A DNA stretch of 64,000 nt from Alphaproteobacteria bacterium (GCA_009784815.1 WQXN01000002.1:94667-158666), one strand, 5' to 3'. Shown: positions 57,537-63,955, counted from the stretch's first letter. The notes: generated by a model from the sequence alone, not told the origin. A program made the numbers and translations.

Positions 57537-58139
57537 TTATTTGGGAATGGCCAAAGTCCTTTCCAGCGCAACCCTAACAATTTTGTCGATTACCTCGGGT
57601 TTTTGCAAAATTGGACATAAATTCTTCTGCGCATTGCTAGGAAATATTGAGCTAAAATCGTCTTCTTGGCAAACATACATCACCCATTGAGTGTGCACAT
57701 CGTCTATTTCAAAGGATAGGGCGCTTAAACCGTACGGAAATCGTTTGTCCGTGTGCCTATCCATGAATTTATGGGCGCATTTCGGGAAATGATCCATAGG
57801 CGGAATAATCCAATCCCCGCCGCCGCAGGATTTAATCGAATAATCGTCGGTTCCATAGATTTTATTAGGCAAAACCGGGCGGTAAAATACATTATTTAGC
57901 CTTCCTAAGCCACTGTTTTCTATGCTTTTTATGGTTTCCCGGTAAATTGTCCCATGCTCTTTATGGGTTATATTGAAATGATGCGACCATGGACGGCCCT
58001 TAAAAAACGTCTTTTTTCTTATATTTTTCCAAATGGCAGCCTGAAATTCATCGAAATATTGCAGCTTTTGTGGGGCAAACGCGAAAATCGCTTGATCAGG
58101 GTGATATTCATAGTTTAAAAGACACTGCATTATAGGCAT
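57537..58139 (-). CDS. hypothetical protein (200 aa)
   Basis: AAGGAG RBS. A hand count of one 60-nt line gives about 33% GC. No motif recognised. Confidence 0.6.
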   Translation of the reverse strand: MPIMQCLLNYEYHPDQAIFAFAPQKLQYFDEFQAAIWKNIRKKTFFKGRPWSHHFNITHKEHGTIYRETIKSIENSGLGRLNNVFYRPVLPNKIYGTDDYSIKSCGGGDWIIPPMDHFPKCAHKFMDRHTDKRFPYGLSALSFEIDDVHTQWVMYVCQEDDFSSIFPSNAQKNLCPILQKPEVIDKIVRVALERTLAIPK

Positions 58140-58194
58140 TTCAAGCTCCTTTTTCGTCGTTGCGCTTACATTTTTAACTCAAATTTGCCAATTT

Positions 58195-58743
58195 TCAAGC
58201 AGTTTTTTCTAAAATTACGAAGCTGGCGCGGCCATATTTACGGCGGGTTAGAGTGATAAATCCCTTAAAATCCTTGGAATTTGTGTTAATTGGTTCTTCT
58301 GACTCGATAATTAAAATTGTGCCAGTTTTCATAAGATTGGCCATTAAAGTTATATCAATTTTACTGCCGTAAGGCGGATCTATAAAGATAATATCGGCTT
58401 TTGGCGCGTATTTGCCGGTAATTTCCGGCATTTTGGCATGCTTGATTATAATAGATGAACTGTTATTCATATCTTTAAGATTTTTGCTGATAATTTTAAT
58501 CGCCTGGGGATCTGAATCAGTGAAAATTACGGTATTTGCAAGCCTGCGGGATATAAATTCTGCTCCAAAAGCCCCGCTTCCGGCATAAACGTCCCAAACA
58601 ACCAAGTCTTTTTGTTTAATTAGAGGTATTAGTATATTGAATAAAGCTATTTTTGCGCGCATGCTTGTCGGGCGTGCACCGGCGGGATAGTCTAATTTCC
58701 TGCCTTTAAATTCTCCCGAAATGATTTGCATTTTAGCATTCAT
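58195..58743 (-). CDS. rsmD: 16S rRNA (guanine966-N2)-methyltransferase
   Basis: ISGEFKGRKL, DVYAGSGAFG and FIDPPY. Confidence 0.85.
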   Translation of the reverse strand: MNAKMQIISGEFKGRKLDYPAGARPTSMRAKIALFNILIPLIKQKDLVVWDVYAGSGAFGAEFISRRLANTVIFTDSDPQAIKIISKNLKDMNNSSSIIIKHAKMPEITGKYAPKADIIFIDPPYGSKIDITLMANLMKTGTILIIESEEPINTNSKDFKGFITLTRRKYGRASFVILEKTA

Positions 58744-61316: not shown

Positions 61317-62294
61317 ATGTCGGGCAAAATTAAAGTATATGTGGACGGGCAGGTCGGTACGACCGGGCTTCAGATAATCGGGCGTTTATCAAAGCGCGAC
61401 GATATAGACATCTTATTTATTCCCGAAGATTTGCGTAAAAACGACGACGCGCGCCGCGATTACCTCAACAAATCCGACGTTTCGTTTCTGTGTCTTTCCG
61501 ACGCCAACGCCGTCAAAGCCGCATCTATGGTTGAGAATCCCAACACTGTGATTATCGATGCTTCAACCGCGCACCGCACGAACCCCGATTGGGTTTACGG
61601 TCTTCCGGAAATCGGCGCGCAAAGAAAGGCTATCCGTGGAGCGAAACGTATCGCGAACCCGGGTTGTCATGCTTCCGGATTTATATCCATAGTTTATCCC
61701 TTGGTTTTCGAAGGGGTTATAGCGCGAAATCAAGCTTTGAGTTGTTTCTCGATCACCGGTTATTCCGGCGGCGGGAAAGAGCTTATAGCGGAATACGAAA
61801 ATTCGCCCGATTACGAGGACGAGGCGGACTATCTATATCGCGAACTGGACGGCGCGCAACTGTACGCGCTTGGGTTGGTGCACAAGCATCTTGACGAGAT
61901 GAGGCATATGTGCGGCCTTTTGAAGGCTCCTGTATTTGTGCCGATTTTGAACGATGTTGCTCAGGGCATGACAGTCAGCGTTCCTTTGAGTCTTGAGGGC
62001 GGCGATCACGACGCCGTGCAAATTCACCAATTTTTGGCAGAGTATTATAAAGACGCCGAATTCGTTAAAGTTATGCCGTTTGCCGGCAAGGGTTGCCTGA
62101 ATACCAAGCGCAATACTTTGTCTTCGCAAAGATGCAATGGCACGAACCGAATGGAACTTTTTGTATTTGGCCACAGTAATCACGCGGTGGTTTCGGCCGT
62201 GTTTGATAATCTTGGCGCGGGTGCGGGCGGGCAGGCGATGCATAATATGAATATCGCTTTGGGTATTGAAGAAGCCAAGGGTCTTGTTCGCTAA
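61317..62294 (+). CDS. argC: N-acetyl-gamma-glutamyl-phosphate reductase (short type 2)
   Basis: VDGQVGTTGL, with the catalytic Cys in ANPGCHASG. Confidence 0.9.
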   Translation: MSGKIKVYVDGQVGTTGLQIIGRLSKRDDIDILFIPEDLRKNDDARRDYLNKSDVSFLCLSDANAVKAASMVENPNTVIIDASTAHRTNPDWVYGLPEIGAQRKAIRGAKRIANPGCHASGFISIVYPLVFEGVIARNQALSCFSITGYSGGGKELIAEYENSPDYEDEADYLYRELDGAQLYALGLVHKHLDEMRHMCGLLKAPVFVPILNDVAQGMTVSVPLSLEGGDHDAVQIHQFLAEYYKDAEFVKVMPFAGKGCLNTKRNTLSSQRCNGTNRMELFVFGHSNHAVVSAVFDNLGAGAGGQAMHNMNIALGIEEAKGLVR

Positions 62295-62320: not shown

Positions 62321-62347
62321 ATTAGGAAGACTTAACGTCTTCCTAAT
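62321..62347 (+). terminator. perfect 11-bp hairpin after argC
   Basis: ATTAGGAAGAC-TTAAC-GTCTTCCTAAT. There is no clear T-run. Confidence 0.5.
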
Positions 62348-62365
62348 GTATTTCCTATATTTTCT

Positions 62366-62476
62366 AAAAAAGGGTGAAATTTGGCCAAAAATTGGCTAAA
62401 TTAAGGATAAAATAAGGTCAAAAAACGCTGAAAATTTAAGCAAAAAATCGCTAAAAATAGCGAAAATTCAACAAAA
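62366..62476. repeat. array of 11 helically phased A-tracts
   Basis: A3-A6 tracts start at 62366, 62377, 62387, 62398, 62409, 62420, 62431, 62442, 62453, 62463 and 62473. The spacings are 11, 10, 11, 11, 11, 11, 11, 11, 10, 10. Confidence 0.85.
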
Positions 62477-62549
62477 TTTAATGGAATCTGCGGCGGGATT
62501 TGAATTTGTGGCTGAAAAATCTTAATTTTTACTAGGTAGAAAGATCGAG

Positions 62550-62577
62550 TTGCTAAATCCTGGGTAAATGGCATAAT
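62550..62577 (+). promoter_or_regulatory. putative sigma70 promoter
   Basis: TTGCTA (62550..62555), N16, CATAAT (62572..62577), immediately upstream of a GGAGG-led mini-ORF. Confidence 0.4.
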
Positions 62578-62869
62578 AAAACGGAGGAGTCTTGATGAAA
62601 AACACGGGAAACCTGCGGGTTTTTATTTATCTTCATGTCGCATAATGTATATTATGTGTAGTTATATATGGTGGAATCGCCTGATCAAAGGGTATTGATA
62701 TCATTTTTATCCGGATTGAGGTCATTTTTATTCGGAACGATTTCAGGATTCGCGCCGGTTTTTGATCAAATATTATTTGAATTATTTTTGTTTGAATTGT
62801 TTTGCCGGGCTCTTTATTTTAAAATAATTTACTCTTGTTTAAATCGCGTTTTTATTTTATATTCACGGA

Positions 62870-63955
62870 ATGCAAAGCTTTGATTTCTCGATCGTATTTA
62901 TTCTAAGCCAGATTTTTATGCTGGTGTCCTTCGTGTTTTTCAGCGCGTCTTATCTTATAAAAAGCAGGCTTGGGCTTTTGGTGGCCAATATCTTTTGCAA
63001 TATTTTCGCAGTGGCAAGCTTTGCCTTATTAGGCGGCTGGATAGCCGCGGCGATGTTTGGAATCGCGATGTTCCGCGACGTTATAAGCGCGTACAGGTAT
63101 GTGCGGCAGACTCCATTGCAGCGTTTAAAAAGCACCAGTACGGACCGATATCTTATGTTTTTCTGGATTTTTGTGTTCACTGTCGCTGCGGCGCTTACCC
63201 AGGTCGGATTTATAAGCCTGTTCGCTTACTTCGCAATTATGGCCTTTAATATAGGAATATTACAGAAAAGCGTTTTAGTATACAGATTGCTTGGAATATT
63301 CGTCGGACTGTTCTGGCTTGTATACAGCGTCAGCGTTTCGAATATTATCGGCGTGATTCTGTATCCTATTATCGCCTTGTCCGCAGCAATTGGCGTAGTA
63401 TCTTATTATAAGGGCAAAAACCGCATCAAAAATTTCCCTAAAACTATAAAGACGCAAAGGTTGGTGCTTCGCGCTTTGCGGAAAAGCGATGCTGGTCCCC
63501 TATTCTCTTTGATCGATAAAAATCGCGGTTTCATCGGCGCGCATTTGGACTGGGTGGACTGTGTGAAGACCTTAAAGGACGAGGAAAAATACGTGGCTGC
63601 CCGCATAGCCGAGTGGAAAATCAAGGCGGGATTCAATTGGATAATTGAAACAGCTAAAGGCGGTTTGATTGGCTTTATAGGCACGGATCCGGTGTCATCC
63701 GATCTTTGGAAAAAGCGCAAATATATAGACTTTGATAATAAGATATTGTCTTTTGCTTACTTTCTTGATCCGAAATACACCGGCAAAGGTTATATGACCG
63801 AAGCTTTGCGCGCTTTGATTGATATTTCGCGCAATTTGGGTTTCAAACGCGTGCAGTTCGGCATAGGCGCGGAAAATATAAAATCCATAGCTGTGGTAAA
63901 ACGTTTAGGAGCCAAGCTTGTGGGCGAAAAACTGGAAATAGATTTGCGGAAATGA
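62870..63955 (+). CDS. fusion of a YgjV-like inner-membrane domain and a GNAT (RimJ/RimL-type) acetyltransferase
   Basis: The N-terminal ~185 aa has about 5-6 TM segments. The C-terminal part has RLVLRALRKSDAGPLF ... KYTGKGYMTEALRALI ... ENIKSIAVVKRLGAKLVGE. Confidence 0.7.
   Translation: MQSFDFSIVFILSQIFMLVSFVFFSASYLIKSRLGLLVANIFCNIFAVASFALLGGWIAAAMFGIAMFRDVISAYRYVRQTPLQRLKSTSTDRYLMFFWIFVFTVAAALTQVGFISLFAYFAIMAFNIGILQKSVLVYRLLGIFVGLFWLVYSVSVSNIIGVILYPIIALSAAIGVVSYYKGKNRIKNFPKTIKTQRLVLRALRKSDAGPLFSLIDKNRGFIGAHLDWVDCVKTLKDEEKYVAARIAEWKIKAGFNWIIETAKGGLIGFIGTDPVSSDLWKKRKYIDFDNKILSFAYFLDPKYTGKGYMTEALRALIDISRNLGFKRVQFGIGAENIKSIAVVKRLGAKLVGEKLEIDLRK

Follow-up and report, generated by a model that had tools for sequence, protein, structure and literature searches.

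Phased A-tracts beside the dif site of an alphaproteobacterium, predicted to form an intrinsically curved DNA element

The non-coding gap between argC and the ygjV-GNAT gene

The window analyzed is a stretch of 64,000 nucleotides, numbered from its first letter, of the genome G000, an 828-kb assembly of 12 contigs with about 49% G+C. All features are on the plus strand unless indicated otherwise. An open reading frame at positions 61317 to 62294 encodes an argC-like semialdehyde dehydrogenase with the Pfam domains Semialdhyde_dhC_1 and Semialdhyde_dh, and the next open reading frame, at positions 62870 to 63955, encodes a YgjV-like membrane domain fused to a GNAT acetyltransferase (Pfam domains Imp-YgjV and Acetyltransf_3). 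Both genes are neighbors, upstream and downstream, and lie outside the element considered here. The 575 bp between them are non-coding, as stated in the first-pass annotation of this DNA. This gap contains, from left to right, a terminator-like hairpin past argC, ATTAGGAAGAC-TTAAC-GTCTTCCTAAT, with 11 pairs in a terminator scan (positions 62321 to 62347), an array of 11 phased A-tracts (62366 to 62476), the sequence AATGGAATCTGCGGCGGGATTT at the dif-proximal end of the array (62480 to 62501), a sigma-70-like match (62550 to 62577), a genus-conserved spacer with a GGAAACC-centered hairpin-like piece (62583 to 62634), and a dif site (62635 to 62662). By eye, AATGGAATCTGCGGCGGGATTT has a weak likeness to the 15-mer GGCGGATTTCTGCGG, a conserved part of the curved arrays in the Enterousia group that has no helical register to dif.

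The array is composed of A-runs of 3 to 6 nt, each followed by five to seven G/C-richer bases, with a period of about 10.7 bp. A-runs of at least 3 nt start at positions 62366, 62377, 62387, 62398, 62409, 62420, 62431, 62442, 62453, 62463, and 62473, and the successive spacings are 11, 10, 11, 11, 11, 11, 11, 11, 10, and 10, in exact agreement with the first-pass annotation. No out-of-phase A-runs of at least 3 nt were found within the array, and the spectrum of the tract positions had its maximum at 10.75 to 11.0 bp. Two of the 11 tracts are merely AAA followed by T's (AAATTT and AAATT). Judged by the definition of several helix-phased A-tracts of 4 to 6 bp without TpA steps, the array belongs to the class of phased A-tract DNA.

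To evaluate how unusual this arrangement is, chains of A or T tracts spaced at 10 to 11 bp were counted in the whole of G000. There were 29660 single tracts, 1172 chains of two, 66 of three, and 4 of four tracts, which is a drop of about twenty-fold with each extra tract up to four tracts, and a single chain of 11 tracts, which is the array. None of 20,000 shuffles, performed with the intergenic region or with the array itself, gave a chain of more than five tracts. The assumption that 11 in-phase tracts are beyond what an ordinary AT-rich spacer shows was thus borne out, with a longest other chain of four tracts in G000, and equivalent arrays are not common in the intergenic regions of this genome, in which the array is single. 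The units had also been read as a degenerate tandem repeat of 10 to 11 bp, and this part of the earlier description has to be dropped: Tandem Repeats Finder gave only fragments of 1.9 to 2.8 copies with scores of 31 to 35. A mini- or microsatellite was ruled out on the same grounds, since the program found no alignable head-to-tail copies. The periodicity resides in the placement of the A-tracts and not in the sequence of the units.

The sigma-70-like match TTGCTA-N16-(TG)CATAAT is present at positions 62550 to 62577, as had been reported, and agrees in 9 of 12 positions in a promoter scan. This score is at chance level, with four promoter-type matches found and 2.7 expected by shuffling. Only the sequence CATAAyAAAAc (62572 to 62582) of this match is kept in the congeners, the genomes G000 to G003 of the same genus, and the −35 hexamer is not. 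Between the end of the array and the putative −35 hexamer (62550) there are 66 to 74 bp. Relative to the predicted start, the array extends over about −100 to −220, with its center some 165 bp upstream. This is outside the −40 to −60 block of a UP element, a candidate that was rejected for this position, the −35 motif that is not conserved, and the chance-level promoter score. The suggestion of the first-pass annotation that the array may be a UP-like activator of the promoter is for these reasons not well supported.

Several other candidates at the locus were rejected. A conserved leader peptide was dismissed because the 16-codon mini-ORF at positions 62595 to 62645 is absent from the congeners and has its stop codon inside dif. 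A known RNA was ruled out by the Rfam search, which had no match at E ≤ 1 between positions 61800 and 63200 and a single chance-level match in the loci of four relatives. For an RNA stem that would pair the purine-rich with the pyrimidine-rich end of the spacer, inspection by eye showed no covariation among the four congeners. The sequence TTCAAATCCCGCCGCAGATTCCA on the bottom strand at positions 62484 to 62510 was considered as a tRNA 3′ fragment or integration scar and was taken as a chance event, with 15 of 23 positions in the best match to a tRNA of G000. A possible degenerate dif to the left of the array, TAATGTAT at positions 62343 to 62350, is an 8-mer match and not significant.

The dif site next to the array

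When the 575-bp gap was searched against 40 related genomes, the sequence of the array was not conserved, but a stretch of about 30 bp, located 160 bp downstream of the array, was 90 to 97% identical across genera and families. The 28-bp site at positions 62635 to 62662 has an arm-center-arm layout and occurs as a single copy family-wide. It is composed of the 11-bp XerC arm ATGTCGCATAA (62635 to 62645), the 6-bp center TGTATA (62646 to 62651), and the 11-bp XerD arm TTATGTGTAGT (62652 to 62662). The array is at a distance of about 158 to 269 bp from the XerC arm, or −274 to −167 in the dif-oriented comparison. A 23-mer of dif, with up to three mismatches allowed, matched 112 of the 121 genomes of the family; of the 103 genomes of high quality, 102 had the site. 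There was one match per genome, with the exception of G003, which possesses an additional degenerate second site. The reversed control pattern gave one match across all family genomes. The exact 23-mer was found in “Candidatus Enterousia,” in gut and rumen Alphaproteobacteria, and also in the Desulfobulbales as an outgroup. Enterousia is a member of the reduced-genome order Rs-D84 (PMC12306168). The family of G000 comprises gut Alphaproteobacteria of this order, Enterousia among them.

A sequence of 41 bases including dif occurs at exactly one chromosomal place, directly downstream of hipA, in 5371 of 5426 Escherichia coli genomes. The site downstream of hipA reads GCGCATAATGTATATTATGTTAAAT and has 19 contiguous bases in common with dif of G000, and we take this single-copy site to be dif of E. 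coli. The gene of an XerD-like recombinase adjoins ftsK in G000 and its product scored 312.6 bits on TIGR02225, while an XerC-like recombinase scored 295.3 bits on TIGR02224, both just below the equivalog cutoff. FtsK of G000 comprises 718 amino acid residues, and its match to FtsK of E. coli reaches the C terminus. Judged by the architecture of the site, the single copy per chromosome, and the presence of the cognate XerC, XerD, and FtsK proteins, positions 62635 to 62662 are the chromosomal dif, at which XerC and XerD resolve chromosome dimers.

A change in the sign of the GC skew at dif was absent in G000, G003, G056, and G077. In the complete genome of G046 (716 kb), dif and the skew minimum are 47% of the circle apart, yet dif is 80 to 135 kb from the skew maximum and the switch in 8-mer polarity. 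The direction of the genes is usually the same on both sides of dif. The second Xer site of G003 has a different central region and is 17.5 kb away.

Curvature at dif in G000 and its relatives

The trajectory of the helix axis was calculated with wedge models across the whole genome, and curvature was expressed as the end-to-end shortening of the axis in windows of 100 bp. Reliance was placed on the agreement of three models and a model-free score, and not on the parameters of any single wedge model. With the Bolshoy-Trifonov model, the array was the most curved 100 bp of G000 with a value of 0.567, compared to 0.637 for the next window and a median of 0.97. It was also ranked first by the De Santis model, by the AA-wedge-only model, and by the model-free phasing power, which was 29.3 compared to 20.5 for the next candidate. 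The deflection summed by the wedge model was about 230 degrees across 113 bp. The array is thus the DNA with the sharpest predicted curvature in the G000 genome. Intrinsically curved DNA, the central proposal of the first-pass annotation, is supported computationally by all three wedge models and the phasing score, and the genome-wide comparison of curvature and periodicity that had been suggested placed the array first in every measure.

For a comparison of the congeners, all loci were oriented by dif. The flanking genes differ on both sides of dif among G000, G001, G002, and G003. All four genomes have in common about 90 bp adjoining the XerC arm, with CATAAyAAAAc, the GGAAACC-centered hairpin-like piece, and then dif, and G000 and G001 are 76% identical across positions 62570 to 62665. 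Phased A-tracts are kept 170 to 310 bp on the XerC side of dif in three of the four genomes: in G000, in G003 with about 210 bp and at least seven consecutive tracts in phase, and in G002 as two groups that are separated by a palindromic insertion. In G001, the place of the array is taken by an insertion and coding-like sequence. The part of the query containing the array had no match in the congeners at E ≤ 0.01. The arrays of the congeners are not alignable, and the persisting pattern is that of an A4-6 tract plus a G/C-rich half-turn. Arrays that cannot be aligned, yet are phased at the same place, indicate that the conserved feature is the phase, which means the shape, and not the sequence. 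An A-rich phased stretch is also present at the same place beside dif in G006, which belongs to a different genus. The array travels with dif and not with argC or the downstream gene; dif and its linkage to the array had both been overlooked in the first-pass annotation.

Curved DNA at dif recurs in other genera of the family. In the Enterousia-like genus and in genus g9, a strongly curved segment is on the XerD side, centered at a median of +450 bp, and is composed mostly of T-tracts on the same strand. The most curved window of contig C4 of G077 (243 kb) had a value of 0.498, compared to 0.657 for the next, and is 375 bp from dif, and the top curvature as well as the top phasing power of contigs C6 of G056 (205 kb) and C15 of G003 (170 kb) were found within 370 bp of dif; these three genomes had been picked for the rank tests because the dif flank looked curved, so that the ranks show that this curvature is unmatched elsewhere there and not how frequent it is. 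In the complete genome of G046, the top phasing power is located 279 bp from dif, marginally ahead of the next position (23.5 versus 23.3) and with an ordinary wedge curvature.

Evaluation of the frequency of this association was based on 8-kb loci. In 36 of the 42 loci from named alpha-group genomes, dif was no more than 800 bp from the most curved window, while uniform placement would yield 8.6, although the significance of this enrichment is overstated since the loci came from related genomes and are not independent. All 22 windows with a value below 0.65 in these loci were near dif. A null model that considered only non-coding DNA expected 38.4 loci, compared to 59 of 67 observed, and part of the enrichment is trivial because the dif gap holds most of the local non-coding DNA, being the largest non-coding stretch locally and accounting for 57% of all non-coding bases of these 8-kb loci. 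The period of the strongly curved windows had a median of 10.5 bp with an interquartile range of 10.3 to 10.6 bp (n = 41).

The distribution of the curved DNA is patchy. Of 15 genera sampled from the family, 5 had strong curvature, with a ratio below 0.65, at a distance of up to 700 bp from dif, and 61 of 135 dereplicated loci had it within 1 kb. There was none beside dif in seven genomes of genus g5, none in nine loci of sister families, and none in 10 outgroup loci; the Desulfobulbales carry the same dif. This patchiness indicates that the curved element is not required for Xer recombination or catalysis. The side also varies, with the curved DNA on the XerC side in the genus of G000 and on the XerD side in the Enterousia group and most of the family. 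Left of dif, the A-tracts are mostly in the top strand, and right of it mostly in the bottom strand. The distance of the curved arrays from dif ranges from 300 to 960 bp, with a Rayleigh R of 0.22 at 10.5 bp, which is not significant. The 9-mer TTTCTGCGG was found near dif in 68 of the 135 dereplicated loci and elsewhere in 8.

Orphan XerD arms, in direct or inverted orientation, are present in many relatives and bracket the curved region at −224 to −455, +45 to +60, and +495 to +560. Around dif, such orphan arms are sometimes arranged in 45-bp tandem arrays in the relatives, and not in G000. No second dif-like site or orphan arm with up to one mismatch was found within 1.5 kb of dif in G000.

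Candidate roles of the curved DNA

The array is best explained as an intrinsically curved, shape-selected element of the non-coding dif module, and not of a neighboring gene, with a static bend as its presumed property. We assign a probability of about 0.5 to this reading. A shape-based role is favored because only the proximity to dif appears to be conserved.

The main alternative is that the array is promoter-upstream curved DNA that activates or modulates the promoter with the CATAAT motif at positions 62572 to 62577, leading to a transcript that would cross dif into ygjV-GNAT, and that it is close to dif only by virtue of the large gap. A match with an extended −10 element is indeed located about 70 bp downstream of the array, CATAAyAAAAc is kept in the four congeners, and a same-strand gene follows dif in three of the four. 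Two further observations are the reason why this alternative has to be kept: 37 of the 50 XerD-side arrays precede the 5′ end of the adjacent gene, and curved DNA that pins plectonemes has been reported directly upstream of prokaryotic promoters (PMC6301789). Nevertheless, the other 13 of these 50 arrays are positioned past the 3′ end of a convergent gene, and the genes to be served would belong to at least 12 unrelated families, since the arrays adjoin at least this number of different downstream gene families, including mscL, tlyA, leuS, aroK, and GNAT. Moreover, of several hundred promoters, just the one on the dif side would possess such an array, and this in each of five genomes or contigs. 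The distance of about 165 bp between the center of the array and the predicted start, the missing conservation of the −35 hexamer, and the chance-level score of the scan also argue against a promoter function, which makes this explanation unlikely.

A mobile origin would mean that a small IMEX-like element, which uses Xer recombination to sit at dif, brought the array as cargo or left it as a relic, with any selection being for the element and not for the cell. The orphan XerD arms that bracket the curved region in many relatives and the patchy distribution across genera keep this possibility alive, and it agrees also with the variable side relative to dif, with the short core motif common to arrays of different genera, and with the second Xer site of G003, with its different central region at a distance of 17.5 kb. 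In G000, however, the two bracketing dif-like sites and the element genes that define an IMEX were not found; neither a second dif-like site nor an orphan arm was found within 1.5 kb of dif at up to one mismatch, and the 340 bp between argC and dif have no open reading frame or coding capacity. A phage or plasmid origin was rejected, with no similarity to any of 50,697 phage or 72,556 plasmid records. The presence of the motif in most of the examined loci of the large genus g14 suggests vertical inheritance, and a phase that is kept despite sequence turnover at a coding density of about 90% (PMC12306168) argues for a selected function. We consider a mobile origin to be quite improbable. The units may instead be iterons, each with an A-tract and a G/C block, that are bound sequence specifically by a terminus protein, for instance one for fork arrest or anchoring, with curvature as a by-product. 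This would explain the loose A4-6-(T)-GGC/GCG pattern common to the units, the strict conservation of a 15- to 20-mer in the Enterousia arrays that is nearly confined to the dif flank, and the strand preference of the A-tracts, which is top on the left side of dif and bottom on the right side. It is difficult to reconcile with unit sequences that are not conserved between G000 and G003, with the absence of a repeat family in the Tandem Repeats Finder result, and with periods centered on the helical repeat, which would be the outcome of selection for bending itself; in addition, no lineage-specific gene for a DNA-binding protein is linked to the locus, the neighbors of which are housekeeping genes. 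Iterons are thus less probable again. Finally, AT-rich non-coding DNA gathers A-runs, and the dif gap is the largest local non-coding stretch, so the array could be a product of slippage or AT-rich drift without any function. A chain of 11 tracts in a genome with an otherwise highest number of four, the absence of chains longer than five in the 20,000 shuffles, an array that is not a tandem duplication, and the recurrence of the same phasing in unalignable arrays of congeners and in other genera render a neutral origin very improbable.

With a curved element of the dif module as the preferred reading, its action may be envisioned as follows. The element would work through its shape, a static bend that amounts to roughly a U-turn. 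This bend may fix the local path of the supercoiled DNA by pinning the tip of a plectoneme, and by the curvature criterion, the array is predicted to be the strongest plectoneme pin of G000. Alternatively, the bend may seat bend-loving proteins, such as IHF, HU, or the ZapT-like MerR protein that is linked to ihfA. G000 encodes HU, IhfA, and an IhfB-like protein, and a MerR_1 gene overlaps the end of ihfA. The array may also be a nucleation site for nucleoid proteins, as had been mentioned in the first-pass annotation. In either case, the neighborhood of dif might be kept defined, accessible, or anchored for FtsK plus XerCD at cell division. A static bend that compensates for lost IHF, HU, or topoisomerase IV was rejected since all of them are present in G000.

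Phased A-tract curved DNA is known from the bends of kinetoplast minicircles, from bacterial A-tract clusters, and from bends upstream of promoters (Haran & Mohanty 2009; Hagerman 1990; both as cited in PMC11840125). The array resembles these examples with its A4-6 tracts at the helical period, its G/C-rich half-turns, and its predicted strong planar or superhelical curvature. In contrast to these examples, it is exceptionally long for a bacterial chromosome with 11 tracts, is unique in its genome, and is tied to dif instead of a promoter or an origin. Intrinsic curvature over about the length of one tip loop determines the pinning of plectonemes, and the pinning sites have been reported upstream of promoters (Kim et al. 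2018, PMC6301789). The array differs from them by its position beside dif, a link that is undescribed, and its pinning is a prediction only. A literature search that combined curved DNA or A-tracts with dif or Xer gave no description of the association.

The plasmid-borne Xer sites cer of ColE1 and psi of pSC101 have accessory sequences that are bound by PepA together with ArgR or ArcA (for example, bioRxiv 10.64898/2026.02.23.706985). These sequences comprise 100 to 200 bp of non-coding DNA beside the XerC arm and serve an architectural role. The array of G000, which is on the XerC side at 158 to 269 bp, is similar in this respect, and an architectural role is proposed for it. In contrast to cer and psi, dif of G000 is chromosomal with FtsK as a partner, the curved DNA of the relatives is on the XerD side, the bend should be intrinsic to the DNA and not imposed by PepA plus ArgR, and the distance of 300 to 960 bp is without a register. 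An accessory sequence of the cer or psi type at a fixed distance and register was thus ruled out by the variation of side and distance and the Rayleigh R of 0.22. Since neither the side nor the helical register seems to matter, a rigid synaptic scaffold of this type is also unlikely.

In Thermococcus kodakarensis, the DNA flanking dif, and not dif itself or XerA, forms an SMC boundary by way of a nucleoid protein, and the efficiency tracks the A-tract content (PMC11840125). Common to both cases are the large intergenic region around dif and a structural function of the flanking DNA, the latter being a proposal for G000. The Thermococcus boundary, however, stalls Smc-ScpAB through TrmBL2, and its A-tracts are discussed as straight or rigid DNA and not as phased bends (PMC11840125). 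ScpA (PF02616) was not found in G000 or any of the 41 family genomes searched, 40 of which are at least 90% complete, while the Caulobacter control was detected. The search for an SMC hinge domain in G000 was likewise negative. Given the result for ScpA in the 41 family genomes, the mechanism from Thermococcus is not directly applicable, and a roadblock or unloading site for SMC at dif, as in the Thermococcus boundary or the XerD sites of Bacillus subtilis, was rejected. Another precedent is ZapT of Caulobacter crescentus, a MerR-type protein encoded after ihfA that binds to the terminus without a sequence motif; DNA bending was suggested as a possible cue by the authors, and the ihfA-MerR gene arrangement was used to define ZapT homologs (PMC7188993). 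G000 is also alphaproteobacterial and has the same ihfA-MerR_1 gene pair, so that its protein is, by gene arrangement, a ZapT-like candidate. MatP is known only from enteric bacteria (PMC7188993). These data lead to the more speculative idea that DNA shape marks dif in condensin-less, reduced gut Alphaproteobacteria. The most curved DNA of the chromosome would be kept there, either protein-independent or assisted by ZapT or IHF, to position or anchor dif for FtsK plus XerCD. In this general form, the idea is doubtful.

In the usual view, dif is a bare 28-bp site, the activity of which is determined by XerCD, FtsK, and flanking chromosome polarity alone. If the preferred reading of the array as a curved element of the dif module is true, the resolution of chromosome dimers or the positioning of the terminus would gain an architectural level from a curved element that is found with dif in many species. 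The dif-side curved arrays occur in bacteria without a detected ScpA. Together with its curved companion, dif would be a landmark of the terminus region where the GC skew is uninformative. The element is short and well defined, which makes the idea directly testable, and the answer may bear on the question which DNA cue guides motif-less terminus-binding proteins such as ZapT in the Alphaproteobacteria.

Motifs and Xer-type sites around dif

Directly outside the XerC arm of dif, a G-rich motif (AAAACCGCGGGGG or AAAACCACGGGGG) was found by by-eye comparison to recur across genera, at −35 to −55 from dif (minus denoting the XerC side and plus the XerD side), for example, in the relatives' loci L131, L088, L137, and L057 and at 62600 to 62620 of the window in the source genome. 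This motif may be a candidate for orienting FtsK or for binding another protein. On the other side of dif, the 20-mer AAAATGGCGGATTTCTGCGG is identical across many species of the Enterousia group, where it lies within the curved arrays at a median of +458 (for example, +467 in L137 and +357 in L019), with a constant strand relative to dif, and it is nearly restricted to the dif flank.

Orphan XerD arms (ATTATGTATAGTTT), which are not accompanied by a XerC arm, surround dif in many genomes of the family, as direct copies at −224 to −455 and as inverted copies at +45 to +60 and +495 to +560. Examples are L020 (−247), L137 (+56 and +527), and L124 (+45 to +315), in which a 45-bp tandem array holds seven copies; none was present around dif in the source genome. 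The congener G003 possesses a second Xer-type site with two intact arms and a different central region (GCATAATGTGCGTTATGTATAGT) on the minus strand of C15:185239-185261, inverted relative to the main dif and 17.5 kb away from it.

Periodic DNA, predicted curvature, and insertions into the arrays

At 30 to 100 bp past the XerD arm, a 21-bp unit (ATTGAGATCATTTTTATCCGG) is present twice (window 62694 to 62736), which separates its T5 runs by two helical turns; phasing is poor among the T-tracts that lie further downstream. Positions 58131 to 58231 of the window (C2:152797-152897; end-to-end ratio of 0.637) rank second in the source genome for predicted curvature over 100 bp. This series of phased T-tracts occupies a short intergenic gap, with an unknown gene of 200 amino acids on one side and rsmD on the other.

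MITE-like palindromic insertions of about 65 to 70 bp (TTGTCATKCCG...CGGMATC, ending in ...AATCCAGG) are dispersed in the congeners, at −150 to −85 from dif in L002, at −195 to −130 in L003, and at other positions in both loci. One such insertion interrupts the A-tract array of G002, and in G001 one is found in place of the array.

Replication landmarks, an ihfA-linked MerR gene, and ScpA

In G046, a single contig of 716,531 bp, dnaA is located at 374 kb and the minimum of the cumulative GC skew at 537 kb, about 160 kb apart. The distance between dnaA and dif is 176 to 223 kb in G046, G078, and G127, which is about one-quarter of the genome in G046 and, calculated from rounded sizes, likewise in the other two.

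In the source genome, ihfA precedes an overlapping gene of the MerR_1 family (124 amino acids) at C2:64140-64856, outside the window (L235, 1474 to 2138). This is the operon layout of ZapT, the terminus-binding protein of Caulobacter, and an ihfA-then-MerR order serves as a criterion for ZapT homologues (PMC7188993). The SMC kleisin ScpA (PF02616), detected in the Caulobacter control, was found in none of 41 genomes of the family, the source genome included (40 at least 90% complete; 12 genera). This lineage may do without Smc-ScpAB.
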